Shown: positions 1 through 20,103 of the stretch, piece by piece
Layout of the letters: each line of letters starts with the position of its first letter
Numbering within the stretch: position 1 is the first letter of the stretch
Source: Pirellulaceae bacterium
GTDB taxonomy: Bacteria > Planctomycetota > Planctomycetia > Pirellulales > Pirellulaceae
DNA: 21,246 nucleotides
Reading direction: 5' to 3'
Assembly: GCA_044359485.1 (NCBI GenBank)
Contig: JBIKMB010000090.1
Location: 1-21,246, forward strand
Notes under the pieces: generated by a model
Told to the model about the DNA's origin: nothing
The model's database searches: none
The model's input: only the letters and a program-made list of their open reading frames with translations
Position numbers and translations under genes: made by a program

Positions 1-1653
1 TTGCTGGCGATGATTAGGCTGGACTCAGGCGATATTGGCATCATAACGTTATTTGCTTTGGTGATTGGCTTATTGGGCTTGGCGACACCGTTGGCAGTCG
101 AGTCGTTAGTCAATACGGTGGTTTTTGGTCGTTATGTTCAGCCGATCATTATTTTGTCGCTGATGCTGTTTGTCTTTTTGATGTTCTCCGGCTTTCTCCG
201 AATATTGCAATCTTATGCGGCGGAGATTATTCAGCGACGCATGATGGTTCGCGTGGTAGGCGACCTAGCGAATCGAATACCTCGCGCGAACATCAAGCAA
301 TGGGACACTGTTTGGGGGCCAGAGCTAACAAACCGCTTCTTTGATGTGCTGACGCTTCAAAAGTCGGTTTCAACACTTTTTGTGGACGGAATCAGTTTGA
401 TCATGCAAACCATTATTGGTTTGGCATTGCTCGGTTTTTACCATCCATTCTTGCTCGGGTTTGACATCGTTTTAGTCGCTTGCGTCGTGGTTATCATTTT
501 GGTTTTGGGGCGTGGTGGTATCAAAACGGCTGAGAATGAATCGATTGTAAAGTACAAAGTTGCTCATTGGTTGCAGGATTTAGCTGGGGCGACAACGGCT
601 TTTAAGATTCATGGTGGCCGGCAGTTGGCGGTCGACCGAGCCAACCGATTGATGGGTGAGTATGTCGCGATGAGGAGTCGCCATTTTCGCGTGTTGTTAC
701 GACAGAATGCGGCGGGGATGATTCTTTACGCAGTCGCTTCAACCGCTCTGTTGGGCTTGGGTGGGTGGTTGGTTGTGCAGGGGCGATTGTCACCGGGTCA
801 ATTGGTCGCGGCAGAACTAATTGTCACGGTGATTCTTGGGTCATTCATGAAAATTGGAAAGCAAGTTGAGACCTTTTTTGATTTGACTGCCGGTGTCAAT
901 AAACTTGGACACCTTCTCGACCTGGAGACTGATCCGCCAGGACGCTTGATTGATGTCGGTACTGGGCCTGCTCCGGTGCACTGGACCAATCTAGCCATTG
1001 AGATAGAGAATACGCACAAGGAAATGCACTTCGAAGACTATACGATCGAAGCTGGTGAAACGGTTGCGATTGTCGGGCCCAGTGGATATGGCAAGTCGCT
1101 CCTGGCGGAGGCTTTGGTGGGAATGAGGAGTCCTTGTAGTGGCTATATTGAAATCGAAGGAATCGAAGCTCGTGAAGCTTCGCGATTGAGCGATGGTGGC
1201 ATGGCTGCAATGGCTGGCGGCCGCCATGTCTTTCATGGTACTGTGGCAGAGAATATTCATCTCGGTCGTCCCACGGTAACCGATGCGGATGTGCGAGAGA
1301 GTTTGCGCAAGGTTTTGGCTTGGGATGAAGTGCTCAAATTGCCCGAGGGGATGGAGACACCATTGCTCACTGGCGGGCGTCCCTTGTCTAGCGGCCAGAT
1401 TGACCGGCTGATGATTGCCAGAGCGATCGCCGGTTCGCCCAGAGTGCTTATCCTGGATGGGGCGTTAGATGCTTTGCCGATCGATGTTCGTCAAGGAATA
1501 TGGAACAATTTGACCAATCCGAAAACAGCGACGATCATCGTGATCACCAACGAGCCAGACATCATACAGAGATGTGATAAAGTAGTGAGTTTGCCTGGAG
1601 TGGGCGGTTCAGGGGTAGTTGGTAAATTGGACTCTTCACATGCTTTTGCGTAA
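1..1653 (+). CDS. ABC transporter, fused transmembrane domain (six predicted TM helices, type I exporter fold) plus C-terminal nucleotide-binding domain; HlyB/T1SS-type. The 5' end is probably truncated by the window edge, since TM1 begins at about residue 12. The NBD motifs are degenerate.
   Basis: The translation has six hydrophobic helices in the first ~300 aa. These are followed by Walker A GPSGYGKS, ABC signature LSSGQIDRL and a Walker B-like LILDGALDAL in which Gly replaces the catalytic Glu. The H-loop region reads ITNEP with no His, and no clear Q-loop Gln is present. The ORF begins at nt 1 only because TTG is accepted as a start codon. Confidence 0.85.
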   Translation: MLAMIRLDSGDIGIITLFALVIGLLGLATPLAVESLVNTVVFGRYVQPIIILSLMLFVFLMFSGFLRILQSYAAEIIQRRMMVRVVGDLANRIPRANIKQWDTVWGPELTNRFFDVLTLQKSVSTLFVDGISLIMQTIIGLALLGFYHPFLLGFDIVLVACVVVIILVLGRGGIKTAENESIVKYKVAHWLQDLAGATTAFKIHGGRQLAVDRANRLMGEYVAMRSRHFRVLLRQNAAGMILYAVASTALLGLGGWLVVQGRLSPGQLVAAELIVTVILGSFMKIGKQVETFFDLTAGVNKLGHLLDLETDPPGRLIDVGTGPAPVHWTNLAIEIENTHKEMHFEDYTIEAGETVAIVGPSGYGKSLLAEALVGMRSPCSGYIEIEGIEAREASRLSDGGMAAMAGGRHVFHGTVAENIHLGRPTVTDADVRESLRKVLAWDEVLKLPEGMETPLLTGGRPLSSGQIDRLMIARAIAGSPRVLILDGALDALPIDVRQGIWNNLTNPKTATIIVITNEPDIIQRCDKVVSLPGVGGSGVVGKLDSSHAFA

Positions 1654-1669
1654 GACAGATGAGTAGACA

Positions 1670-3052
1670 ATGTCGACCAAATATAGACCATGGGTGAGCG
1701 GCTTTGAACTAGCGAACGAAGTAGGGGGGGATTTTCCTGCCCTATTGCTTGTTCGCTCGGTCCGCTGGATTCGCAAATTAGCCTACTACACCATGTTTGG
1801 TCTCTTGTTAGTTTTAATCGCAATGGCAGCATTGCCGTGGCAGCAAACCTCCAGAGGCGAAGGCACGGTTTCCGCTCTCAATCCGCAAGAACGGCCGCAG
1901 CAAGTGAAGTCGCAGTATGATGGCATCGTCAAGCGAATTGCGGATGGGATGGTAGAAGGAAGAAGGGTTAAGAAAGGGGATTTTATCCTAGAGTTAGAAC
2001 CGACTGCGGCAGAGGAGTTAGCCCAGACCGATGCGATCTTGAATTTGTTGGAAGAGCAGTTGCGAGCCGAGCAATCCGAGTACGAGTTGTATCAATCCCA
2101 AGTGGAGCTAGCCGAATCAACACGGGATGCCAACATAGAGAAGCAGGAACTGGCGATTCAGACGGCGGAGTTTAAGTTGCAGGAAAAAGATTCGCTGATT
2201 CGCAAGTACAAGGTTGAATTGGAGCTAGCAAAATTAAATCGGGCACAAAGCGATCGATTGATAGCTGTTGGTGTGGAAGCGGGATTGGATAATGCGGCGT
2301 ATCGGGCCAAAGAAAATAGTTTGATCGAGGAATTAACCGCCAATTCACAATCGCGATCGGCGATCGAAACGGAGATCGGTGAGAAAAAGGCGGAACTGAA
2401 CAAGATCATCGCCGAGGGTAATGACAAAGTTGCCAGTGCAAAGACGAAAGTTCAGAGCGCTTATGGCAAATTGCAGATGACACAGCAGAAGATGAATGAT
2501 ACTAAAATAAAGCGGGGAGCATTGGATCGACTCAATCAGGATGCTCCCTGCGATGGGGTGCTTTATCGTTTGGTGACAGCCGAAGGTGCTTCAACAGTCA
2601 AAAAGGGGGATGAATTGTTTACGATCGTTCCCGATGTGAAAGAGTTGGCTGTCGAAATGGTGGTTTCGGGTAACGATACCTCCTTTATTCGTGAGGGCCA
2701 GGAAGTTAGGTTGCAGTTTGAAGGCTGGCCAGCGGTCCAATTGATCGGTTGGCCCTCGATTGCGATTGGAACATTTGGCGGTCGGGTAAAGATGATTGAC
2801 AAGTTTAGCGAGGGGGCTGGCAAGTTTCGAATACTTGTGGTTCCAGATCCTGAGCTGGATGTATTGAGCGGTCAGCGCCCCTGGCCGACTGAGTTATTGC
2901 GTCAAGGAATGCGTGCCAACGGATGGGTCATGCTTAATGAAGTAACACTGGGATTCGAAATATGGCGACAGTTGAATGGATTCCCGCCATCGCTGGACGA
3001 AGATGCGTCAGGCGAAGAAGAGAAGGCCAAGAAAGTCAAGTTACCGAAGTAA
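1670..3052 (+). CDS. HlyD-family membrane fusion protein (periplasmic adaptor) of a type I secretion/efflux system
   Basis: It has a short cytoplasmic N-terminus, one TM helix (YYTMFGLLLVLIAMAALPW) and a long heptad-rich coiled-coil region (EQLRAEQSEYELYQSQVELAE...KYKVELELAKLN...). The C-terminal beta-rich segment (VKKGDELFTIVP..., QEVRLQFEGWP) is typical of HlyD/EmrA adaptors. The ATG at 1670 lies 17 nt after the ABC gene stop, consistent with an operon. Confidence 0.85.
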   Translation: MSTKYRPWVSGFELANEVGGDFPALLLVRSVRWIRKLAYYTMFGLLLVLIAMAALPWQQTSRGEGTVSALNPQERPQQVKSQYDGIVKRIADGMVEGRRVKKGDFILELEPTAAEELAQTDAILNLLEEQLRAEQSEYELYQSQVELAESTRDANIEKQELAIQTAEFKLQEKDSLIRKYKVELELAKLNRAQSDRLIAVGVEAGLDNAAYRAKENSLIEELTANSQSRSAIETEIGEKKAELNKIIAEGNDKVASAKTKVQSAYGKLQMTQQKMNDTKIKRGALDRLNQDAPCDGVLYRLVTAEGASTVKKGDELFTIVPDVKELAVEMVVSGNDTSFIREGQEVRLQFEGWPAVQLIGWPSIAIGTFGGRVKMIDKFSEGAGKFRILVVPDPELDVLSGQRPWPTELLRQGMRANGWVMLNEVTLGFEIWRQLNGFPPSLDEDASGEEEKAKKVKLPK

Positions 3053-4920
3053 CGCAGTCTTTTTTCGGAACTTCGTTAGGGGCGACTCGGCTCGTAATTT
3101 GTTTACTACTGTTCATTACCTTCAGTTGCGCTTTCCGTTCTCGGAGCGTAGCATGTCAGGATAATGAGGAGGAAGTGATTGAGCCACAGAGAGTCGTGGC
3201 GGAGAGTGTTGTGCCGGAAGTTGCTCAACCTCAGGGCGTTGAGCTACAGGCGATCCGTTCAGCAAGCGGTATTGTGATACCTGCGCAAGAGCCTCAAGTT
3301 CAGGAGGGTAGGCCGCAGGGAGATTTGGCATTGCCTGCAACCATAGCTCCTCAAGTAACACCGGGTCAGAAACCCAACCCGATCGGAAATCCGAACCCGC
3401 CTCAAGATCCGAACCAGATTATCGATCCGAGCAAATTGTCTCAACCTTCTTTCGAAGAACTTCAGTCACAGTTGCCAGAGGGATTAAGGCGAGCTATCGA
3501 GGAACCTGAGAATGAAGGGAATCCCTCGGCATTAACGTTGAGCGATGTGATTGCATCGGTTTATCGAGCTTATCCGACGATTGAAGCGATTCGAATTCAG
3601 CGGCAAGTGGCTGATGGCGATTTATTGGCAACCTTTGGAGAATTTGATACGAAGATTCTCGCCGATACGATGAACGAGCCGACGGGATTCTACGAAAATT
3701 ATCGCCATGGGATTGGAGTAGCTCGCAACACATGGTGGGGCGGTTACTTAGCTACCGGTTATCGCATTGGACGCGGCGAGTATCAGCCGTGGTATAAAGA
3801 GCGAGAGACCTTGGATGGTGGTGAATTCAAGTTGGCCTACATTCAGCCGCTTCTGCAGGGGCGTGACATTGACCCAAGACGCGTGGCGGTTTTTCAGAAT
3901 CGAATTGCTGTGCAGGTTGTAGAACCGCAATTACAGACCGCAATTCTGCAGACATCTTTAGAGGCCGCAACGGTATATTGGGACTGGTTAGCCGCGGGTC
4001 GGAATCTGCGTGTGCAGCAGCAGCTCTTGGCGTTGGCGAGGCAAAGAGTGGCGCAGATACGAGAATTAATTGCCGCCCAACGACGGGCCAAAGTTGATGA
4101 GCTTTTTAATGACGTGTTGATAGCGCAGCGTCTTACCAAGGTCATTGAATCCGAACAAAAATTGCAGCAATCAACATTTAAGCTTGCGCTTTATTTGCGA
4201 GATGAAGGTGGTTCACCTTTGGTAGCGGATACTGGTTGGTTGCCCTCTTCGTTTCCGCCGTTGAGCGATACGCGGGAGATCGATGTGCAGCAGCAGATCG
4301 ATGAAGCTTTAGATCGACGTCCGGAGTTGGTCGAATTGCGTTTGCAAAACGAGGCTGTCCAGTGGGATCGCCGTTGGGCACAAAACCAGTTGCAGGGGCG
4401 GCTCGATTTCGTGGGTGAGATATCGCAAGATGTGGGACCCACGACGAGCAAGAATCGAGACAAGCAGCAATTTGAAGGTGAATTTGGTTTGACCTATGAA
4501 TATCCTTGGCAACTGCGCAAGGCTCGCGGAAAGCTGCGATCGACGGCCGCTAAATTGCAGCAAATCGATCAGAAAAGTCGTTTGCAAATGGACAAGATTT
4601 CGCTGGAAGTCCAAGCCGCAATTGTCGCTTTGCAGCGATCCCAAGAAGTGATCGAGCAATTGGTAAAAGTGGTCGAAACCCAAACACAGGTACTGGAGTT
4701 GCAAGAGATTCAGTTCAATACAGGGCGTATTGACTTGATCGAACTCAATTTGCAGGAACAGTTAATTACCAACTTAAAAATGGATTTGATTATGGCTCAG
4801 CGGGATTGGTTTACGGCGCTGAGCCAATTGGCGACTGCTACCGGTCTAGACCCGCTCGAGCAGGCTTTGCGATTGGAGACGATTCCCGATGGTACCCAAT
4901 CACCGGCTCCAGGGCGGTGA
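2962..4920 (+). CDS. TolC-like outer membrane factor (outer membrane efflux protein family) with an N-terminal signal/anchor segment and a Pro/Gln-rich linker
   Basis: A hydrophobic signal-like segment (RLVICLLLFITFSCAF) is followed by a low-complexity linker rich in P, Q and N. Two OEP-type repeat halves then follow (LTLSDVIASVYRAYPTIEAIRIQRQ... and IDEALDRRPELVELRLQNEAVQWDRRW...) with long predicted coiled coils. The start is uncertain: the only canonical start in frame is the ATG at 2962, which overlaps the hlyD-like gene by 91 nt. Confidence 0.75.
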   Translation: MATVEWIPAIAGRRCVRRRREGQESQVTEVTQSFFGTSLGATRLVICLLLFITFSCAFRSRSVACQDNEEEVIEPQRVVAESVVPEVAQPQGVELQAIRSASGIVIPAQEPQVQEGRPQGDLALPATIAPQVTPGQKPNPIGNPNPPQDPNQIIDPSKLSQPSFEELQSQLPEGLRRAIEEPENEGNPSALTLSDVIASVYRAYPTIEAIRIQRQVADGDLLATFGEFDTKILADTMNEPTGFYENYRHGIGVARNTWWGGYLATGYRIGRGEYQPWYKERETLDGGEFKLAYIQPLLQGRDIDPRRVAVFQNRIAVQVVEPQLQTAILQTSLEAATVYWDWLAAGRNLRVQQQLLALARQRVAQIRELIAAQRRAKVDELFNDVLIAQRLTKVIESEQKLQQSTFKLALYLRDEGGSPLVADTGWLPSSFPPLSDTREIDVQQQIDEALDRRPELVELRLQNEAVQWDRRWAQNQLQGRLDFVGEISQDVGPTTSKNRDKQQFEGEFGLTYEYPWQLRKARGKLRSTAAKLQQIDQKSRLQMDKISLEVQAAIVALQRSQEVIEQLVKVVETQTQVLELQEIQFNTGRIDLIELNLQEQLITNLKMDLIMAQRDWFTALSQLATATGLDPLEQALRLETIPDGTQSPAPGR

Positions 4921-5097: not shown

Positions 5098-6111
5098 GTG
5101 GCCTTTGCACATCTAGGACCTATCGCGATAGCCTTTCCTAAGCGACTGGAAACCAATGCTCAGCTGCAAGCGGAGTTTCCGGAGTGGGATTTAAACCAAA
5201 TTGAAGAGAAGACGGGTATAGGCGCCCGCTATGTTGCCGAGCCTGGGCAGTGCGCTTCCGATCTGGCCGTAGAGGCGTGCGAGAAACTGTTTGCCGAAAA
5301 TCAGGTCGATCGAGCGGAAATCGATTTTTTGCTGTTGTGCACCCAAACGCCCGATTATCCGTTGCCAACTACGGCATGCCTTCTGCAAAATCGGCTTGGG
5401 CTATCGACTGGGATAGGAGCTCTCGATTTCAACCTCGGCTGTTCGGGATTTGTCTACGGATTATCGCTAGCCGACGGGCTCATTCGCAGCGGTGTGGCGA
5501 AGAAGATATTATTGATCACAGCGGATACTTACTCCAAATACATCGATCGAGCCGATCGAAGCCTGCGTACAATTTTTGGCGATGCGGCGGCGGTAACGCT
5601 AATCGAGGCGAGAGAGCAGCAAGAGGTATCGGGTTTTGTTTTTGGTACCGATGGTAGCGGAGCCGATACGCTATTGGTAGGCGAAGGTGGTTGCCGCGGA
5701 CCCGAAGAAGCGATTCGACCTCGGGGAAGAAAACGGTGGAAAAGCCGCTTGTATATGGATGGCCCAAGCCTAATGGCTTTTACCGTCGAAGCGATTCCTA
5801 TGCTGGTTGATACCGTGGCGGCCAAAGCAGGAGTTCGTAAAGAATCGATCGATTGGTTTCTTTTGCACCAAGCGTCGTATAAAATGTTGTCTCAGTTGCA
5901 AGGACGAATTGGATATGGCAACGAGAAAATTCCGATTCGCTTGCGAGAGTATGGTAACACCGTCTCTTGCACGATTCCCTTATTGATTCACGATATGCGT
6001 AAAAGTGGTGAGATCAAACTGGGCTCGACCTTGATGTTGGTGGGTTTTGGTGTGGGGTGGTCCTGGGCAGGTTGCGTATGGCGGGAGACGCATGCGCCAT
6101 GTTTGGCTTAG
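5098..6111 (+). CDS. 3-oxoacyl-ACP synthase III (KAS III, FabH family)
   Basis: The N-terminal FabH pattern IAFPKRLETNAQL...EEKTGIGARY is present. A Cys-His-Asn triad is present in conserved contexts (NLGCSGFVYGL, FLLHQASYKML, EYGNTVSCTIPLL). Length is 337 aa with a GTG start. An Arg-rich insertion of roughly 9 aa (RGPEEAIRPRGRKRWKSR) precedes the MDG motif. Confidence 0.85.
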   Translation: MAFAHLGPIAIAFPKRLETNAQLQAEFPEWDLNQIEEKTGIGARYVAEPGQCASDLAVEACEKLFAENQVDRAEIDFLLLCTQTPDYPLPTTACLLQNRLGLSTGIGALDFNLGCSGFVYGLSLADGLIRSGVAKKILLITADTYSKYIDRADRSLRTIFGDAAAVTLIEAREQQEVSGFVFGTDGSGADTLLVGEGGCRGPEEAIRPRGRKRWKSRLYMDGPSLMAFTVEAIPMLVDTVAAKAGVRKESIDWFLLHQASYKMLSQLQGRIGYGNEKIPIRLREYGNTVSCTIPLLIHDMRKSGEIKLGSTLMLVGFGVGWSWAGCVWRETHAPCLA

Positions 6112-6650
6112 AAGGTAAATTGCTCATCGCTTCGCCACAATTGCAGGATCCGAATTTCTATCGGTCTGTGGTTTTCATTATTCGGCACGACGAAGAAGGA
6201 GCATATGGTTTGGTCGTCAATCGTCCAACCAATCAATGCGTCGCCAAAGTAATGGAAATGCTCCTAGAGAGCCCGTGTCATCGCTCGGGCTTTATCATGA
6301 ACGGCGGGCCCGTCGAAGGCCCCTTGGTGGTTCTTCACGATTCCCCCAGCACATCCGATATCGAATGTGGTCATGAGCTATACCTGGCCAGTTGCCAAGA
6401 ACGCGTGCGTGAACTTATGGCCATCGATGATGGGCATGCACTGATTTTTGATGGTTACTCCGGTTGGGGCCCCGGACAACTCGAAGAAGAGTTGAAGATT
6501 GGGGGATGGTTGGTCGCCGAAACCGATGTTTCCGAGCTTTTCGGCGAAAACGCCGAGATTTGGGAACGTACATTGAGGCGAATCGGCCGTGACATCATCG
6601 CCTCAATTACGGGTAATGTCCCGTTGCCACCCGATCCAACGATCAACTAA
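6099..6650 (+). CDS. YqgE/AlgH family protein (UPF0301/DUF179)
   Basis: The family's N-terminal signature is present (LEGKLLIASPQLQDPNFYRSVVFIIRHDEEGAYGLVVNRP). The ATG at 6099 is preferred over the ORF-track start at 6057, which would overlap the FabH-like gene by 55 nt. Confidence 0.75.
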   Translation: MFGLEGKLLIASPQLQDPNFYRSVVFIIRHDEEGAYGLVVNRPTNQCVAKVMEMLLESPCHRSGFIMNGGPVEGPLVVLHDSPSTSDIECGHELYLASCQERVRELMAIDDGHALIFDGYSGWGPGQLEEELKIGGWLVAETDVSELFGENAEIWERTLRRIGRDIIASITGNVPLPPDPTIN

Positions 6651-6819
6651 CTTTTCGGTAACGGTAGCCATTCGAAGGTATCCGAACCAATGCCGGTCGA
6701 CTTGGTTTAAAATCATTCCCTTCCGGACCTGGATTTCGTGAAAAATAGCGCGAGGATTTGTTCCAGCTTCGAATTGGTTGAACCTCCAAGCCGTCGGATG
6801 GTCGATACCAGTCCTTATC

Positions 6820-6845
6820 GGGAATTCGTTAAAATGCGAATTCCC
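6820..6845. promoter_or_regulatory. Perfect 9-bp inverted repeat GGGAATTCG-N8-CGAATTCCC in the 376-nt leader upstream of the FAAL-ACP-AOS gene; candidate operator/regulatory hairpin
   Basis: Read directly from the sequence: gggaattcg ttaaaatg cgaattccc. It lies about 180 nt upstream of the ATG at 7027. No T-tract follows it, so it is not a classical terminator. Confidence 0.3.
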
Positions 6846-7026
6846 TGTAAATAGTGGCCTTACTATGGTGGCCTCGTTTGGGGCGTGAATTTTTGGAAGT
6901 TGTTAGGTACAATCCGCTATATTCTCTAGCTTTCGTAAACCCTGCAGATGGGAAGTTTGCAGGGGGAGACCCTTTGGTCTGGAGCGAATGTTGGAATTGG
7001 CGGGAGTTAGCAAGCATGGGTGAACC

Positions 7027-10000
7027 ATGAATGAGTTGGAGCCTGCGGACGTATCGAAATATTTTCCGACGTACGCTGTTCCTCAGACCGATTTAGTTTC
7101 GGCTGCACAGTTTTGGGCAGCTAAGACTCCAGACAATCCTGTGTTCTACTTTACCGATGGTGAAGATGGTGAGGATGTATGTCTGACGTATCGGCAGTTG
7201 GATCAGGCAGCGCGTGCGATTGCTTCGCGCCTTCAGCAAGCGGGTAGTGCCGAAGGGCAAAGGGTATTGTTGCTTTATCCGCCGGGACTCGATTTCGTGG
7301 TCGGTTTCTTTGGCACACTGTATGCCGGCGCGATTGCGGTTCCAGCGTTTCCTCCTCGCAAGAATCGCAGGGGGGCCCGCATTCAAAGTATCGCGGAGGA
7401 TTGCTCGGCGAATTGGGCGTTGAGCATCACCAGTGTTTGTGATTTGATTCATTCGGACGACAGCGCTCAGCAGGATTTGACGGGTGTGTCGATATTGGCC
7501 ACCGATCAAATCTCGTTGTCTCTCGCAGATCAATATAAGCCGGTAGCGATCAACCAGTTGGCACCTGCCGTTTTGCAATACACCTCCGGCTCTACTGGGC
7601 AACCGAAGGGTGTGGTTTTGAGCCATGCTTGTTTGGTGCGAAATTCTGAATTGATTTTGCTGGCCTTTGAACCGGGGCCTGGGGGAGGCTGCAGTTGGTT
7701 GCCGTTGTATCATGACATGGGACTGGTGGGTGGAGTTTTGGAACCGGTCTTTTTGGGACGTCCCAATGTTTTGATGAGTCCGATGAGTTTCTTGCAGCGG
7801 CCGGCAAGATGGTTGCGAACGATATCCAAATATCGTGTCGCCGTCAGTGGTGGACCGAATTTTGCTTATCAACTCTGCGTCGACAAAGTGACCGAGGCGG
7901 ACATGGAGGGGATCGACTTAAGTTGTTGGTCGGTCGCTTATAACGGAGCCGAACCGGTTCGGGCATCGACCTTAACGCAGTTTAGTGAGAAGTTTGAGAA
8001 ATATGGTTTCAATAAATCCGCATTTCTTCCATGTTATGGGATGGCTGAAACGACGTTGATTGTTACCGGTGGACCCACATCGACCCGTCCTTTCTTCCGA
8101 ACCTTTGATGCTCAGGCACTGGATCAGCGCAAAGTGCAACCGCTTGCTGCGGACGATGGATCGGACAAGTGCCGAACGTTGGTCGGTTGCGGAGCTGTAT
8201 TGTCCAATGAAAACGTGATTGTGGTGGATCCGGACACGTTGGAGGAGCTGCCGCCAGGGCGAGTGGGAGAGATTTGGATACAGAGCCCGAGTGTGGGCAA
8301 AGGATATTGGCGGAAACCGCAGGAAAGCCAGCGGACATTTCAGGCATTTACGGTTGCAGGCCGAGGGCCCTTTTTGCGGACGGGCGACTTAGGTTTTCTG
8401 CATGAGAATCAGTTGTTTGTCGCGGGTCGATTGAAGGACATGATCATTGTCCGCGGGGTGAATCGCTATCCTCAAGATATTGAGTTGACTGTCGAAGAAT
8501 CGCACAAGAGTATCCAGTCTGGCTCGGTGGCGGCGTTTTCCTTGCAAGTCGATGAACGCGAGCGACTGGTCGTTACGGCAGAAGTCCAGCGTGGTGCTCA
8601 GCAGAATTGGGACGAAGTGATACAGGCGATTCGTCGTAGAGTTACCGAAGTACATGAACTCCCTCCCGAAGCCATCGCGTTGGTCCGCTTTGGAACTCTC
8701 CCGAAAACCTCGAGCGGAAAAATTCAGCGGCATGCCTGCATGAATGATTACAAAAACAATGCGTTGAAATTGGTGGCGCATTGGAAGTTGGGCGAAGTGC
8801 AAATGCTTAAGCAGGAGCCGATGATTGCGGCCTCGACCATTGATGCGCCGGTTCGAGATAGTGGTTCGATCAAGAGTCTATTGAGCGACCCCAAGCTGAA
8901 TGAAAAAGATCCGCATCCAGAAATTGTACGCGTCGTGATAGCAGCGGTGAAAGCGATCGCTCAAGAGCGGGCCGAAAATGTAAGTATTGATACGAACATC
9001 GTCTTGGACTTGGGGCTTGATTCGTTGGAACGATTGCAGATTGCGCATTCCTTGGAACAGCAATTTGGGGGTCGGTTCCCTGAGGATATCTTGCAAGATA
9101 TTGAAACGGTGCGGCAGGTATCGGCAGCGATCGAGGAATTGTTTGGAGTCGAACGCATTCATCGCAGTTTGACCGAGGCGGTTGCTGCAGAAGAAGTCTT
9201 ATACAGTCGCGAAGTGACACCCGAGGATTATCAATTTGATTTGATTCCCGAGTATCGTCGTCTCAAGATGACGATGGCCGAACTGTTATCGACCGGAGTG
9301 CGCAATCCTTATTTTGCCGCGCATCAAGGCGTGGTTCGCGACACGACAACGATCGGTGGTCGCGAGTTGATCAGTTTCGCATCGTATAACTATCTTGGCA
9401 TGAGCGGTGATCCCGCCGTCAACAAGGCTGTGGTGGAAGCGGTTCACAAATATGGAACCAGTTGCTCGGCATCGCGTTTGGTGAGTGGCGAAAAAGACCT
9501 GCACCAAAAACTAGAGCGTCGCATCGCCAAGTGGATCGGCGTCGAAGATAGTATTGTGATGGTGGGGGGGCATGCGACCAATGAATCGGTGATTGGGCAT
9601 TTGCTCGGTCCTGGCGATTTGATTTTGCATGATTCGTTATCCCACAATAGTATCGTGCAAGGAGCAATACTCTCGGGTGCAAGAAGACGTGCATTCCCGC
9701 ACAATGATTGGCGAGCGCTCGAACGAATCCTGCAAGATATCCGCGACAAGTATCGACGTGTGTTGGTGATTGTCGAAGGCGTCTACAGCATGGATGGTGA
9801 TTATCCCGACTTGCCAAAGTTTGTTGACATCAAGCAGCGAAACAAATGTTGGTTGATGGTCGATGAAGCGCATTCCATCGGCACCATGGGTAAGACGGGA
9901 CGTGGTATTAGCGAACACTTTGGTCTAGATGCCAATGTCGTCGACATTTGGATGGGAACGCTCAGCAAGTCGTTCGGTTCATGCGGCGGCTATATCGCTG

Positions 10001-10467
10001 GCCGTCGTGAATTGATTGAGTATTTGAAGTATACGACTCCTGGGTTCGTCTTCAGTGTCGGTTTGTCACCCTCCAATGCGGCTGCCGCACTTGCTTCGTT
10101 AGATGTTTTGGAAGCGGAACCGATGCGGGTCGAGCGTTTGCGACAAAACTCTCAATTGTTTTTGGAAGAAGCCCGCAAACGCGGACTCAATACGGGCGAT
10201 TCGTGCGGAACTCCGGTGGTTCCCGTGATTTTGGGTAATTCGTTCATCGCGCTAAAACTAGCCGATCGCATGGTTAGCCAAGGCATCAATGTGCTACCGA
10301 TCTTGTACCCAGCGGTTGAAGAAGCTGCAGCACGCTTGCGTTTCTTCATCAATTCGACGCATTCTGAAAATCAAATATTGTTCGCAGTACGATTGGTTGA
10401 GGAGTCGTTACGCGATCTCTATCCCGAGTACTTTGTGAATTCCGATTCCGATCGATCGGTCGCTTAG
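7027..10467 (+). CDS. Tri-domain fatty acyl-AMP ligase (FAAL) - acyl carrier protein - alpha-oxoamine synthase (class II aminotransferase, BioF/KBL/SPT/CqsA family) fusion protein
   Basis: Adenylation motifs are present in order: YTSGSTGQPKGVVLSH, CYGMAETT, RTGDLGF and PKTSSGKIQR. The ACP Ppant site is LDLGLDSLERLQIAHSLEQQFG. The C-terminal PLP-dependent AOS domain carries NYLGM, DEAHSIGTMG and the PLP-lysine motif GTLSKSFGSCGGY. The ORF is a single uninterrupted 1146-aa reading frame. Confidence 0.9.
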   Translation: MNELEPADVSKYFPTYAVPQTDLVSAAQFWAAKTPDNPVFYFTDGEDGEDVCLTYRQLDQAARAIASRLQQAGSAEGQRVLLLYPPGLDFVVGFFGTLYAGAIAVPAFPPRKNRRGARIQSIAEDCSANWALSITSVCDLIHSDDSAQQDLTGVSILATDQISLSLADQYKPVAINQLAPAVLQYTSGSTGQPKGVVLSHACLVRNSELILLAFEPGPGGGCSWLPLYHDMGLVGGVLEPVFLGRPNVLMSPMSFLQRPARWLRTISKYRVAVSGGPNFAYQLCVDKVTEADMEGIDLSCWSVAYNGAEPVRASTLTQFSEKFEKYGFNKSAFLPCYGMAETTLIVTGGPTSTRPFFRTFDAQALDQRKVQPLAADDGSDKCRTLVGCGAVLSNENVIVVDPDTLEELPPGRVGEIWIQSPSVGKGYWRKPQESQRTFQAFTVAGRGPFLRTGDLGFLHENQLFVAGRLKDMIIVRGVNRYPQDIELTVEESHKSIQSGSVAAFSLQVDERERLVVTAEVQRGAQQNWDEVIQAIRRRVTEVHELPPEAIALVRFGTLPKTSSGKIQRHACMNDYKNNALKLVAHWKLGEVQMLKQEPMIAASTIDAPVRDSGSIKSLLSDPKLNEKDPHPEIVRVVIAAVKAIAQERAENVSIDTNIVLDLGLDSLERLQIAHSLEQQFGGRFPEDILQDIETVRQVSAAIEELFGVERIHRSLTEAVAAEEVLYSREVTPEDYQFDLIPEYRRLKMTMAELLSTGVRNPYFAAHQGVVRDTTTIGGRELISFASYNYLGMSGDPAVNKAVVEAVHKYGTSCSASRLVSGEKDLHQKLERRIAKWIGVEDSIVMVGGHATNESVIGHLLGPGDLILHDSLSHNSIVQGAILSGARRRAFPHNDWRALERILQDIRDKYRRVLVIVEGVYSMDGDYPDLPKFVDIKQRNKCWLMVDEAHSIGTMGKTGRGISEHFGLDANVVDIWMGTLSKSFGSCGGYIAGRRELIEYLKYTTPGFVFSVGLSPSNAAAALASLDVLEAEPMRVERLRQNSQLFLEEARKRGLNTGDSCGTPVVPVILGNSFIALKLADRMVSQGINVLPILYPAVEEAAARLRFFINSTHSENQILFAVRLVEESLRDLYPEYFVNSDSDRSVA

Positions 10468-13651: not shown

Positions 13652-13725
13652 GCCAGCATAGCTTCAATTGGCAGAGCACCGCATTCGTAATGCGGGGGTT
13701 GTGGGTTCGATTCCCACTGCTGGCT
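13652..13725 (+). tRNA. tRNA-Thr (anticodon CGU)
   Basis: Manual cloverleaf folding gives a perfect 7-bp acceptor stem (GCCAGCA/TGCTGGC), a D stem GCTT/GAGC and an anticodon stem CCGCA/TGCGG with loop TTCGTAA (anticodon CGT). The T arm is GTGGG-TTCGATT-CCCAC. No CCA is encoded. Confidence 0.85.
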
Positions 13726-13773
13726 CTTTTATCGCTACCATTTCTGAATCGTTTCCCGAGGAGTCTTGGCCAA

Positions 13774-15099
13774 ATGGCTCAAGGAGCAGTAGTAGATCTT
13801 CGCGACATTGTTCTGTCCAACAACACGTTCGGTCCTGCCGAAATCAGGCAACTTTGCCAGGGTATTGCTGAGGACTTTACTCAGTTTACAACCTTGCGAG
13901 ATGCAGTGCAGGAATTGGAAGGGGTGGAGGAACGAAGTCCAGCCACTTCGACCCGTCTTGGTGTTTGTCTGTATTTGATTGGTCGCATACCGTTAGCCGA
14001 GCAAGTGTTGCTGAAAGGTGACGGTGGTGCTTTGGCTCAATATTATTTGGGCAAGGTATGCTTCCAGCAAGAGCAGTACGATCGGGCGCTCGGTTATTTC
14101 GATGCGGCCAAGAAAGCGGGTTACGACCCTGAGCAATGCCAACTTGCGACTGCCGAAGCGTTGCGATATCAGGGCAAGTTCCAAGAAGCGATGAACTTGT
14201 TGGACAACATGTTCGGACCGGTGGAGCAAACGGCTGAGTATTTATATCAGCGTGGAGCGACGACGGCGGCATTGGGAGGCAATCCCAACGAAGTAACAAC
14301 GTATTTCCAGCGAGCGGTTTCTGCGGATGGTCGTCATGCAGGAGCTTTGTTCGGCTTGGCGATGGAAAACGATCGATTTGGCAATGATGATGACGCATTG
14401 CGATTGTACGAAAGAGCGGCTGGTGTTTTCCCAACGCATATCGGCACATTGATTAACCTCGGAATCGTTTACGAAGATCGTAACGAATACGGGAAGGCCC
14501 AATTGTGTTACAAACGTATTCTCGAAGTGTATCCCGATCATCCTCGCGCTCGTCTGTACATGAAGGATGCGTCTGCATCAGGTAATTCGTACTATGATGA
14601 GGAGTCGGCGAAACGGACCGAGCGATTGTCGCAATTGCTCAGTATTCCAGTTGCCGATTTCGAACTATCGGTTCGCAGTCGTAATTGTTTGCAAAAGATG
14701 GGTGTGCGAACGTTGGGGGATTTGACCCGCACGACCGAGCAGGAATTGTTGGCCAGCAAGAATTTTGGCGAAACCTCTTTGGTCGAAATTCGCGATATGT
14801 TGTCCTCCAAGGGACTCAGTTTGGGGCAGTTCTCGCATGAACGCCGCGAACCCGAGCCTTCCGTGGATTTATCAACCTTGTCTCCGGATCAAGCGGCTAT
14901 TCTCGATCAGCCGATTTCTAATTTGAATTTGTCGGTACGTGCCCGCAAGTGTATGGTTCGCTTGGGAATCAACACGATTGGTGAGTTGATTCGCAAGACT
15001 GGCGACGACTTGCTGGAGTGCAAGAACTTCGGCGTTACCAGTTTGAATGAAGTGCGGCAGAAGCTCACTGGTATGAATCTAAAATTGCGTGGTGATTGA
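13774..15099 (+). CDS. TPR-repeat protein with two tandem C-terminal RNA polymerase alpha-subunit CTD-like (helix-hairpin-helix) domains
   Basis: Several TPR-like helical repeats are present (YYLGKVCFQQEQYDRALGYFDAAKKAGY..., INLGIVYEDRNEYGKAQLCYKRILEVYPDHPRA). Two copies of the alpha-CTD motif follow: FELSVRSRNCLQKMGVRTLGDLTRTTEQELLASKNFGETSLVEIRDMLSSKGLSLG and LNLSVRARKCMVRLGINTIGELIRKTGDDLLECKNFGVTSLNEVRQKL. Both closely resemble the E. coli RpoA CTD (LELTVRSANCLK...[22 protein letters not shown]). The start is set at the ATG at 13774 because the longer ORF would overlap the tRNA. Confidence 0.8.
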   Translation: MAQGAVVDLRDIVLSNNTFGPAEIRQLCQGIAEDFTQFTTLRDAVQELEGVEERSPATSTRLGVCLYLIGRIPLAEQVLLKGDGGALAQYYLGKVCFQQEQYDRALGYFDAAKKAGYDPEQCQLATAEALRYQGKFQEAMNLLDNMFGPVEQTAEYLYQRGATTAALGGNPNEVTTYFQRAVSADGRHAGALFGLAMENDRFGNDDDALRLYERAAGVFPTHIGTLINLGIVYEDRNEYGKAQLCYKRILEVYPDHPRARLYMKDASASGNSYYDEESAKRTERLSQLLSIPVADFELSVRSRNCLQKMGVRTLGDLTRTTEQELLASKNFGETSLVEIRDMLSSKGLSLGQFSHERREPEPSVDLSTLSPDQAAILDQPISNLNLSVRARKCMVRLGINTIGELIRKTGDDLLECKNFGVTSLNEVRQKLTGMNLKLRGD

Positions 15100-17820: not shown

Positions 17821-20103
17821 ATGGATAAAGATTTTACCGAGTTCCAGTCGCTTGGCGAACAGGATGCAGCTCAGAGATTGAGTTTGCAGAGCCAACAACC
17901 CCCCAGCGACGTGCCGGGTTATCGCCTGGAGCGTCGTTTGGGGCAGGGTGCGTTTGGACAAGTTTGGGTTGGGCATGATCTCAATACGGGCCGGCAGGTG
18001 GCCATCAAATTTTACTTGCATCGCACCGGAGTGAACTGGGCTTTATCTCGCGAGGTGAAGCATTTGGTGACGATGTCCACCAATCGGCACATTGTACAAG
18101 TGCTTGAGGTGGGCTGGCAGGGCGATCCGCCGTATTACGTGATGGAGTATTTGGAGAACGGGTCGCTGGAGGATTTGTTGCGGCGTGAAAAAAGGCTGCC
18201 AGTTCAAACGGCGGTCTCCATGTTTTTCGATATTGCCAGGGGGCTGAATCATTCGCATGGCAAGGGTGTGTTGCATTGCGATTTGAAGCCAGCCAATATT
18301 TTATTGGATCAGGATTTTCGTCCCCGCTTAGCGGATTTTGGTCAAAGCCGTTTGTCGACCGAGCAATCACCGGCGCTTGGGACCTTGTTTTATATGGCGC
18401 CCGAGCAAGCGGATCTAGCAGCTGCGCCTGATGCTCGATGGGATGTTTATGCCTTGGGGGCTATTTTGTATTCGATGTTGGTTGGCGAGCCGCCGTATCG
18501 CAGCGAAAAAGCTCTTAAAGAAATTGAAAATGCAAAATCCATCGCCGAGCGGCTGGAGCTTTATCGCCGCATCATTTTCGAGGCGCCACCATCTCGAGAG
18601 TTACAAAAGATTAGCGGTGTAGATCGTTCATTGATCCAGATTATTCAGCGCTGTATTGCCCGCGAGCCAGAGCGTCGTTTTGATAACGTTCAGCAAGTCT
18701 TGGAAGCGCTCGGGCAGCGACAAGAAGTGCGACTGCGTCGTCCCTTGCAGTTGTTGGGAGTGGTTGGTCCCTTGCTGTTAGTCGCGGTGATGTCATTCTT
18801 CGCCATTCGCAGTATTCGTCTATCCGAAGCTGAAACCCTTCAGCGACTCCAGAATAGAGCGCTCGAATCGAATCGTTTTGCCGCGCGTTTCGCAGCGAGG
18901 TCTATCGAAAGTGAATTGGTAGAAGTGTATCGACTTTTGGAAGAACAAGTGCGGACGCCCGTATTTCAGAAGCGTTTTCGCGAGGCTTTGAAAGCGACCG
19001 AAGAGGGGCGAGCTTTGCTGATAGACAGCCATGATTCTGGAGCGGTTCCCAAAGCTTTTCGGGAGCAGATGCAGCGGCAAGCGTTGGACATGCATTTGTC
19101 TGAGCTCACGATGGGTTGGGGAAAGTCGAGTTCCAATCAGTTGTTGTCGAAACTGAATAGCCTCTTTGTGACGGATGCTTCGGGTACCACCTTCGCGGCC
19201 GCTTTTCGCGATAAGACGTCCGATGATCAATCTCCGGTGGGAAAAAATTTCGCTTATCGAAGTTATTTCAATGGAGGTCGAGATGATGCGAATCGAAACA
19301 AGAAAGCGACCGAATTCCGGCCCATCATGGAGACGCATTTATCGGCTGCATTCAAGAGTACATCCACGGGTACTTGGAAAGTCGCTGTGAGCACGCCTGT
19401 ATGGTTGGATGAACAAGCAACTTTAGGGGAAAATAATCCGGTGCTGGAGGGGGTACCGGAGGTCACGGCAGAGGGCAAAATTTTGGGTGTGTTTTGTTTA
19501 ACGATCGAATTGTCCGACATCAGCATTTTAGAAGATGGTGATTTTGAAGAAGAGGACAAAAATCAAATTGCCGTTCTGATCGATGGTCGCGATGGCGAAT
19601 TGAAGGGGACGTTGTTATATCATCCATTGCTCGAACGTATGGCTCGCAGTCCCATGGCGAGCGGGATAGCCCGCGACGGTCGATTTCAAATTGATGAGCA
19701 AACATTAACGCGCTTGCAGAGCAATGGGATTTTTGACTACGAGGATCCGGTATCCAATACGGCCCCGGGGCAAGAGTTTCAGGGACATTGGATTGCGACG
19801 GTCGAAAAGGTAAGGCTTCCGGTTTCGGCAAACTATGAGGGGAATTCAAGCGGTCGATCGGATTCGGATTTATGGATGCTTGTTCAGGAACGAGCAAGCA
19901 ATGTCACCGATCCCGTACGTCAATTAAGCAGCCGCTTGGCGGGAGAAGGGGTTGCGGCCGTAGCCACCATTATTGCTGTTGTTTTGCTCTTATGGTTGAT
20001 TGTGTGGCGTGTATTGCGACCGGGTGAAAAATCTTTATGGCGGGCTCTGCGCGGGGAGTCGGGACAGGATTCATCATTAAAAAGCACTTCTGAATCGCTC
20101 TAA
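17821..20103 (+). CDS. Transmembrane Ser/Thr protein kinase: N-terminal Hanks-type kinase domain, TM helix, ~370-aa extracytoplasmic Cache-like sensor region, second TM helix
   Basis: Kinase motifs are present: GQGAFGQVW, AIKF, HCDLKPANILL, DFG and APE. TM1 is LQLLGVVGPLLLVAVMSFFAI and TM2 is VAAVATIIAVVLLLWLIVW. Cache-like motifs lie between them (FAYRSYFNGG, TGTWKVAVSTPVW). Confidence 0.9.
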   Translation: MDKDFTEFQSLGEQDAAQRLSLQSQQPPSDVPGYRLERRLGQGAFGQVWVGHDLNTGRQVAIKFYLHRTGVNWALSREVKHLVTMSTNRHIVQVLEVGWQGDPPYYVMEYLENGSLEDLLRREKRLPVQTAVSMFFDIARGLNHSHGKGVLHCDLKPANILLDQDFRPRLADFGQSRLSTEQSPALGTLFYMAPEQADLAAAPDARWDVYALGAILYSMLVGEPPYRSEKALKEIENAKSIAERLELYRRIIFEAPPSRELQKISGVDRSLIQIIQRCIAREPERRFDNVQQVLEALGQRQEVRLRRPLQLLGVVGPLLLVAVMSFFAIRSIRLSEAETLQRLQNRALESNRFAARFAARSIESELVEVYRLLEEQVRTPVFQKRFREALKATEEGRALLIDSHDSGAVPKAFREQMQRQALDMHLSELTMGWGKSSSNQLLSKLNSLFVTDASGTTFAAAFRDKTSDDQSPVGKNFAYRSYFNGGRDDANRNKKATEFRPIMETHLSAAFKSTSTGTWKVAVSTPVWLDEQATLGENNPVLEGVPEVTAEGKILGVFCLTIELSDISILEDGDFEEEDKNQIAVLIDGRDGELKGTLLYHPLLERMARSPMASGIARDGRFQIDEQTLTRLQSNGIFDYEDPVSNTAPGQEFQGHWIATVEKVRLPVSANYEGNSSGRSDSDLWMLVQERASNVTDPVRQLSSRLAGEGVAAVATIIAVVLLLWLIVWRVLRPGEKSLWRALRGESGQDSSLKSTSESL

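Follow-up and report, generated by a model that had tools for sequence, protein, structure and literature searches.

Results

An ATP-binding cassette exporter gene at the edge of the window

The DNA analysed here, which we call the window, is the whole stretch of 21,246 nucleotides (nt) at positions 1 to 21,246 of contig JBIKMB010000090.1 (assembly GCA_044359485.1), from a Pirellulaceae bacterium. Its first gene encodes an ATP-binding cassette (ABC) exporter, recognised by the Pfam families ABC_membrane and ABC_tran, and is followed by genes for a HlyD-family adaptor and for an outer-membrane factor resembling TolC. The window contains the 3' part of the ABC gene, 550 codons and the stop (1-1653, plus strand, as for all features of the cassette given below). 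Frame 1 is open from nt 1 and closes with a stop codon at 1651-1653. However, nt 1 is not the true start of the gene: the window edge truncates it, and the first 195 codons, for a C39-like domain and a His-rich linker, lie upstream, outside the window. The upstream region was viewed in six metagenome contigs (L001 to L006), retrieved by look-up of the downstream HlyD-like protein, which show one to three mismatches with the window over the overlapping 6-13 kb (two differences in 13,052 shared bases for L001). In L001 the full gene occupies 7747-9984, window nt 1 corresponds to nt 8332, and the full protein is a HlyB/PCAT-type ABC exporter of 745 amino acids (aa). Since six metagenome contigs agree so closely with the window, the motif losses described below are not a sequencing artefact.

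The protein is laid out as a C39-like N-terminal domain, a His-rich linker, a six-helix transmembrane domain (TMD) and a C-terminal nucleotide-binding domain (NBD). The TMD (13-930) is assigned six long helices of the type IV exporter fold by PF00664 (window aa 13-281) and by the helices of an AlphaFold2 (AF2) model. The NBD, with its degenerate catalytic motifs, covers 976-1605, and the Pfam ABC_tran match (PF00005, E = 4e-20) spans aa 347-488 of the window open reading frame (ORF). The AF2 model was built for an ortholog 91% identical to the window's protein (P0002), from a 112-sequence alignment; its mean pLDDT is 81, exceeding 90 in the NBD. By profile match and predicted structure, this region is a genuine ABC NBD. 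The best Foldseek matches of the model, over about 720 columns, were the HlyB chain of the HlyB/HlyD complex (8dck_A, E = 1e-24) and PCAT1.

The N-terminal 160 residues, modelled alone by AF2 (pLDDT 87), matched in Foldseek the C39 or C39-like domains of PCAT1, HlyB, ComA and LahT, with probability 1.0 and TM 0.5-0.6. A sequence-profile search of this domain against the PDB returned nothing significant, the Pfam C39 match is weak (E = 0.24), and the identification came from the fold search alone. Residues 1-195 contain no cysteine at all; for lack of it, the modelled domain is taken to be a non-catalytic C39-like domain, as in HlyB (PMC8277102). The His-rich linker, HSTHGHNSHGHSHHAH, sits on the cytoplasmic side between this domain and the first transmembrane helix (TM1), at L001:8230-8330 (residues ~165-195). 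Family-wide, 19% of linker residues are His, against 2.9% in the whole protein, and 102 of 112 members have at least four. The linker looks like a metal-binding segment, and we know of nothing comparable in HlyB or PCAT1. Invariant residues of the protein cluster in the cytoplasmic helical extensions and coupling-helix regions, and in the periplasmic turns between TM3 and TM4 (YHPFLLGFD) and between TM5 and TM6 (GQLVA...).

Catalytic motifs of the NBD

Motifs were assigned by phmmer alignment to both NBDs of P-glycoprotein. All the motif strings named by the original prediction are found in frame 1. They include an intact Walker A, GPSGYGKS (1075-1098), and a near-consensus ABC signature, LSSGQ (1384-1398). 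The remaining motifs depart from consensus. At the A-loop (1003-1005) Ile aligns with the adenine-stacking Tyr of P-glycoprotein, a position that is not conserved across the family. In the Q-loop region AMAGGRHVFHGTVAENI (1207-1257) a-g-g-r-h-v-f stands opposite S-Q-E-P-I-L-F, which places Gly (nt 1216-1218) at the position of Gln. The Walker B and D-loop stretch VLILDGALDALP (1444-1479), aligned with ILLLDEATSALD of P-glycoprotein, pairs lildgaldalp with LLLDEATSALD; here the Asp of Walker B remains, Gly (nt 1459-1461) replaces the catalytic Glu, and SALD becomes LDALP. At the H-loop, IIVITNEPD (1534-1560), vitnep pairs with VVAHRL (P-glycoprotein VVAHRLS) and Asn (nt 1549-1551) takes the place of His.

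Five of the seven NBD motifs are thus degenerate; what remains is Walker A, the Asp of Walker B and the signature. Where a catalytically competent NBD has the A-loop Tyr, the Q-loop Gln, the Walker B Glu and the H-loop His, the window's protein has Ile, Gly, Gly and Asn. The original prediction for this DNA, made by manual motif reading, had described an intact Walker A (GPSGYGKS) and signature (LSSGQ), a Gly instead of the Walker B Glu, a D-loop altered from SALD to DALP, an H-loop without His and a Q-loop with no clear Gln. The alignment agrees on every one of these points, placing no Glu or His at the catalytic positions, and the A-loop substitution is a further loss that was absent from that list.

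The ABC, adaptor and outer-membrane factor genes form a conserved cassette

The gene for the adaptor, a HlyD-family membrane fusion protein (MFP) of 460 aa (1670-3052), begins 16 nt past the ABC stop codon. It is recognised by Pfam HlyD_3 and HlyD_D23 and by NCBIfam type_I_hlyD, the latter at E = 3.7e-21, under the curated cutoff. It is followed by the TolC-like outer-membrane factor (OMP; 3175-4920), with a Pfam OEP match in two stretches (E = 4e-24). The start of this last gene is uncertain: its ORF is open from 2962, giving a 91-nt overlap with the adaptor gene, and gene callers begin it at 3175 or 3196.

To place the cassette in a wider context, one genome was taken per GTDB species, giving 80 loci with 10-kb flanks from Pirellulaceae and Planctomycetaceae, including Rhodopirellula baltica, Pirellula staleyi, Stieleria, Gimesia and Fuerstiella. 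Neighbours were analysed by phmmer of all ORFs with NBD, TMD, MFP and OMP queries, together with all-vs-all clustering. The trio ABC-MFP-OMP contains the only conserved neighbours (ABC at 80, MFP at 73 and OMP at 67 of the 80 loci), the MFP gene following the ABC gene in the 73 and the OMP gene being third in the 67. No conserved fourth gene accompanies the cassette in the 80 loci, and a substrate gene could be unlinked. The only recurrent extra neighbour is a LysR-family regulator that adjoins the ABC gene in 15 of the 80 loci, mostly divergently (L036:8338-9258 and 14 other loci), and also in one distant member (L091:1172-2098). Such a neighbour suggests that, in some lineages, the cassette is controlled in response to small molecules.

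Degeneracy extends across the family

Conservation of the motifs was counted in three samples: 115 homologs of at least 650 aa, 79 species-level genomic copies, and 144 representatives at 50% identity. The Q-loop Gln is absent from all 115 homologs, which have Arg, Gly or Ser instead, and from all 79 species; seven of the 144 representatives have it, and the residue most often found in its place is Arg (80/144 in the representatives). The Walker B Glu is present in two homologs (88 have Gly), six species (54 have Gly) and 36 representatives. Figures for the H-loop His are 41, 19 and 29, respectively, and for the Walker A Lys 102, 61 and 114. No member of any of the three samples combines Gln, Glu and His.

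The Walker B Asp is retained in 75 of 79 species and the signature Gln in 74 of 79. Among the 115 homologs the signature takes the form L[ST]xxQ; most have lost the GG, and only 12 have Gly in fourth place. About 20% of lineages no longer have the Walker A Lys, and among the 144 representatives Walker A as a whole is unrecognisable in many. The window's protein still has the consensus signature and Walker A, unlike the family members without GG (most of them) or without Lys (about 20%). The Thr preceding the H-loop His position is nearly invariant, and so is an Asp four residues past the Walker B Asp (76/79 species, 130/144 representatives). The broader family (P0121-P0268; L091) includes variants of about 550-590 aa without the N-terminal domain. 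From these alignments, degeneracy is a family-wide property, and the family is a natural series of more and less degenerate NBDs. In a search of 1.84 billion proteins, all of the top 150 matches listed were family members, and the boundary with canonical relatives was not reached.

The NBD is maintained by purifying selection

The ratio of nonsynonymous to synonymous substitution rates (dN/dS) was estimated domain by domain against the 91%-identical ortholog: NBD 0.076, TMD 0.032, N-terminal domain 0.071. Values were taken from this ortholog since dS saturates at 80-82% identity, where the orthologs give an NBD dN of about 0.2. The NBD is under strong purifying selection and is not decaying. 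Pairs of family members are on average 61% identical in the TMD and 45% in the NBD, and no other part of the protein is as well conserved as the TMD. ABC proteins usually show the opposite, with the NBD conserved above the TMD; no control family was run for this comparison. Judged from the alignments, selection acts on the fold of the NBD and not on the catalytic residues nor, in many lineages, on the nucleotide-binding residues.

No partner half-transporter at the locus

A degenerate NBD of this kind had led the original prediction to expect a catalytically competent ABC half-transporter gene just upstream of the window. The contigs show there the 195 N-terminal codons that the window's ABC gene lacks, and beyond them DUF1501, PSCyt1/PSCyt2/PSD1, a BBP7 porin and, on the other strand, a SecA-like gene; orthologs at 80-91% identity have a matching upstream context. 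No second ABC gene was found in about 7.7 kb upstream (near-identical contigs) or 19.6 kb downstream (window), and no second TMD-NBD exporter gene within 10 kb at any of the 80 species-level loci. The few extra exporter-sized ORFs with an NBD near these loci carry ABC_tran_Xtn, which marks them as soluble ABC-F proteins, and the remaining extra NBD ORFs are 270-340 aa long with no TMD match to the ABC exporter. Two more distant family members also have a single ABC gene each. The two genes expected of a heterodimer were therefore seen neither at the window locus nor at the loci of the 80 species.

Other genes around the cassette

Upstream, L001:1134-7614 carries the gene for the BBP7 beta-barrel porin, followed by the PSCyt1/PSCyt2/PSD1 and DUF1501 genes. 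The latter pair is apparently multi-copy, because homologs occur at about nine other loci. The short SecA-like protein (720-737 aa; L001:1-817 and L088:968-3130, minus strand) matches only the first ~600 positions of SecA models, below cutoffs. Encoded about 7 kb upstream in this genus, it recalls the 'secondary SecA_DEAD' proteins tied to HlyD/OEP in Planctomycetes (PMC4452313). We rejected a link to those loci, because the SecA-like gene is no conserved neighbour in the other 80 loci and because the published secondary SecA_DEAD and HlyD/OEP loci of Kamneva et al. contain no ABC protein (PMC4452313).

Directly downstream of the cassette are genes for a FabH-like KAS III (5098-6111) and a DUF179/AlgH protein (6057-6650), and for a 1146-aa fusion (7027-10467) of a fatty acyl-AMP ligase (FAAL), an acyl carrier protein (ACP) and a BioF/serine-palmitoyltransferase/CqsA-like acyltransferase dependent on pyridoxal phosphate (PLP). 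The fusion looks like an aminolipid or alpha-hydroxyketone-type synthase. The lipid-type genes at 5098-10467 were considered as a hint to the substrate and rejected, since their synteny is found in close relatives only. The window also encodes, at 13690-15099, a 469-aa protein with tetratricopeptide (TPR) repeats and two tandem RNA polymerase alpha-subunit C-terminal domains (alpha-CTDs), an unusual stand-alone alpha-CTD architecture, and, at 17821-20103, a 760-aa Ser/Thr protein kinase with a weak Cache-like extracytoplasmic region.

Discussion

A nucleotide-binding site of an ABC exporter draws on both NBDs: one supplies Walker A and B together with the A-, Q- and H-loops, and the other supplies the signature (PMC7756269). 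In heterodimers, the protomer with a dead Walker B and H-loop retains a consensus signature, which completes the active site of its partner (PMC7756269). A protomer of the TAP1/TM287 type must for this reason keep its own signature. Here both halves of the composite site are degenerate in one polypeptide, which fits a homodimer with two degenerate sites and not a protomer serving a partner. Considering also that each cassette has one ABC gene, we lean, with slightly more confidence than doubt, towards an exporter that would work as a homodimer with two non-hydrolytic sites, its NBD being a conserved pseudo-ATPase that may serve as a nucleotide-gated or structural switch. The original prediction, a non-hydrolytic half of a heterodimer, was right about the catalytic degeneracy, but its comparison with TAP1/TM287-type protomers is not supported, in view of the missing linked partner, the decay of the signature and the loss of Gln. 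The fallback it offered, an ATP-binding but non-hydrolysing exporter, is what the sequence evidence favours.

In the mechanism we propose, the ABC protein would be the inner-membrane component of a three-gene exporter spanning the envelope, with the HlyD-like adaptor and the TolC-like channel. The NBD, on this view a pseudo-ATPase, still has its fold, with the P-loop, the Mg-binding Asp and the Ser and Gln of the signature in place, whereas the A-loop aromatic residue, the Gln of the Q-loop, the catalytic Glu, the D-loop and the His of the H-loop are lost. Because Walker A, the Walker B Asp and LSSGQ are intact in the window's protein, ATP probably still binds to it and closes the NBD dimer, a switch that could be coupled to the conserved TMD through the coupling helices. 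The switch would then be reset by dissociation instead of hydrolysis. Canonical ATP hydrolysis would not be the power source for export, and the energy would come from elsewhere. Family-wide, this seems to be a set of three-part export machines without the usual ATP-hydrolysis motor.

Among characterised systems, the closest is HlyB, from the type I secretion system (T1SS) for haemolysin in E. coli (HlyB-HlyD-TolC; PDB 8dck/7sgr), which has the same three domains, gives the best structural match, is followed by the gene of a HlyD-family adaptor and uses a TolC-type channel. In keeping with a HlyB-type T1SS, we found a Cys-less C39-like fold, a type IV TMD-NBD fusion and an operon with a HlyD-family adaptor and a TolC-type factor. 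Scores against the curated models stay far below threshold: 132 against 726 bits for HlyB (TIGR01846), 151 against 510 for PrtD (TIGR01842) and 148 against 693 for LssB (TIGR03375). HlyB has canonical motifs, with an essential E631/H662 dyad and Y477 A-loop (PMC8277102), whereas here all three residues, and the Gln as well, are replaced. The planctomycete system differs further in its His-rich linker, in the outer-membrane factor encoded within the operon and in having no RTX-type substrate gene nearby. The best NCBIfam matches (E = 5e-48) are PCAT1/ComA/NHLP-type bacteriocin exporters (AMS/PCAT; TIGR03796/TIGR03797), which are also among the best PDB sequence and fold matches and have the papain-like C39 fold at the N-terminus. 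However, the N-terminal domain here lacks the catalytic Cys, and the protein scores 164 bits against a cutoff of 853; no active C39 peptidase is recognisable, the scores for TIGR03796 and TIGR01193 being far under cutoff. PCATs, moreover, hydrolyse ATP at consensus sites, and NHLP systems have two adjacent ABC genes, not one.

With TAP1, TM287, TmrB and Rv1273c the window's protein shares the loss of the Walker B Glu and H-loop His, an intact Walker A and a near-consensus signature (PMC7756269). Those proteins, however, pair with a partner that is adjacent or obligate and carries a consensus site, and they keep the Q-loop Gln and their own signature, while here no partner gene was found at the locus, Gln is lost, and signature and Walker A decay family-wide. 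A TAP D-loop mutant and CFTR resemble our proposal in that an exporter fold moves substrate or gates on nucleotide binding alone (PMC4242082), and the D-loop is altered here too. The TAP mutant became a passive nucleotide-gated facilitator, so translocation itself is not hydrolysis-dependent (PMC4242082). Yet that mutant is engineered and CFTR is a eukaryotic channel, each with one hydrolytic site, whereas the present case would be a natural bacterial tripartite system in which both sites are dead. SbmA/BacA (SLiPT) peptide transporters likewise operate an exporter-type TMD without ATP hydrolysis (PMC8442886), although they have lost the NBD wholly, act in import and have neither adaptor nor outer-membrane partner.

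Several alternatives have to be weighed against a homodimer with two non-hydrolytic sites. That the gene is decaying and non-functional, or an assembly artefact, would agree with the departure from consensus in five of seven motifs, but it is effectively refuted: an intact 745-codon ORF occurs in near-identical contigs (one to three mismatches) from six separate assemblies, at least 80 species carry orthologs with the operon structure kept, dN/dS is 0.03-0.09 across all domains, and the AF2 model is confident. It is rather improbable that the protein is the degenerate protomer of a heterodimer whose competent partner is encoded elsewhere in the genome, not adjacent to it. The combination of near-consensus Walker A and LSSGQ with a dead Walker B and H-loop is indeed the TAP1/TM287 pattern (PMC7756269). 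However, no second exporter gene lies within the ~7.7 kb upstream, the 19.6 kb downstream, or 10 kb in the 80 species; with the ABC-MFP-OMP trio so tightly linked, one would expect the gene of any fourth, necessary subunit to be found beside it; and the loss of the signature GG in most lineages, and of the Walker A Lys in about 20%, would cripple a partner's consensus site. The Q-loop Gln, which degenerate protomers normally keep, is also absent family-wide, and in the bacterial heterodimers known to us the genes are adjacent.

Another explanation, unlikely but less so than an unlinked partner, is that the homodimer still hydrolyses ATP, slowly or non-canonically, by substrate assistance or through an acidic residue of the family such as the invariant Asp of L-D-x-L following Walker B. 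The strong purifying selection on the NBD would be understandable in that case, the P-loop Lys and Ser and the Walker B Asp are conserved in the window's protein, and the near-invariant Asp four residues past Walker B's own Asp offers a candidate for the catalytic role. HlyB itself is thought to use substrate-assisted catalysis and not a general base, but its mechanism hinges on the H-loop His in a dyad with Glu (PMC8277102), and here both are gone, together with the Q-loop Gln and the A-loop Tyr. In addition, the catalytic positions vary freely among lineages and Walker A is destroyed in a sizeable minority, which is unexpected if turnover is selected. Least probable of the readings that assume a functional protein is an exporter fold driven by the proton-motive force (PMF), like SbmA, with the NBD surviving only for dimerisation or regulation, perhaps under the control of metal bound at the His-rich linker or of the C39-like domain. 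SbmA is a precedent, having an ABC-exporter fold driven by the proton gradient without an NBD (PMC8442886, PMC13316013), and the strong conservation of the TMD with its many invariant charged residues, the repeated decay of the nucleotide motifs and the His content of the linker (19%, at least four His in 102 of 112 members) point the same way. Nevertheless, no proton pathway was identified in the protein, the invariant charged residues lie mostly in the cytoplasmic helical extensions and coupling helices and not in the membrane core, Walker A is intact in the window's protein and in about 80% of lineages, and SbmA is an importer without adaptor or outer-membrane partner.

Some observations weigh against the homodimer with two non-hydrolytic sites that we prefer. 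The Walker B Glu survives in about a quarter of the broader family, and 15 of 144 representatives have Glu, His and Lys together, for which reason some members may still hydrolyse ATP, and catalysis may have been lost in particular lineages and not in the family as a whole. Purifying selection and the conserved residues that couple TMD and NBD indicate that the NBD is still important, and slow hydrolysis by non-canonical residues could account for it. Planctomycetes are known for scattered operons, and a canonical partner could be encoded elsewhere, our partner searches having covered gene neighbourhoods. No substrate was identified, and there is no RTX-type substrate gene nearby. Finally, we infer the homodimeric state, the retained ATP binding, the lack of hydrolysis, the energy source and any substrate from sequence.

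ABC exporters are defined by ATP hydrolysis. To our knowledge, degenerate sites occur only beside one active site, in heterodimers or full-length transporters. Neither a homodimeric exporter with two dead sites nor this planctomycete family is described in the literature that we searched, an absence that is not proof of novelty. It is tempting to propose, as a possibility that we rate a little below even, a large natural family of T1SS-like homodimeric ABC exporters in Planctomycetota in which both sites are dead, export is energised by nucleotide binding only, by the PMF or by another source, and the NBD is a switch, possibly controlled by metal at the linker. The interest of this for the mechanism of ABC transporters is real, its basis being entirely sequence and predicted structure. 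Should the protein be a homodimer, the family would serve as a natural test of a long-standing question, whether hydrolysis is required for translocation itself or only for directionality and resetting, and the occurrence within one family of natural variants that have or lack Glu, His and Lys provides ready-made test cases.

Secretion in Planctomycetota is poorly understood. If our reading is true, most of the sampled genomes of Pirellulaceae and Planctomycetaceae would carry an uncharacterised export system that spans the envelope.

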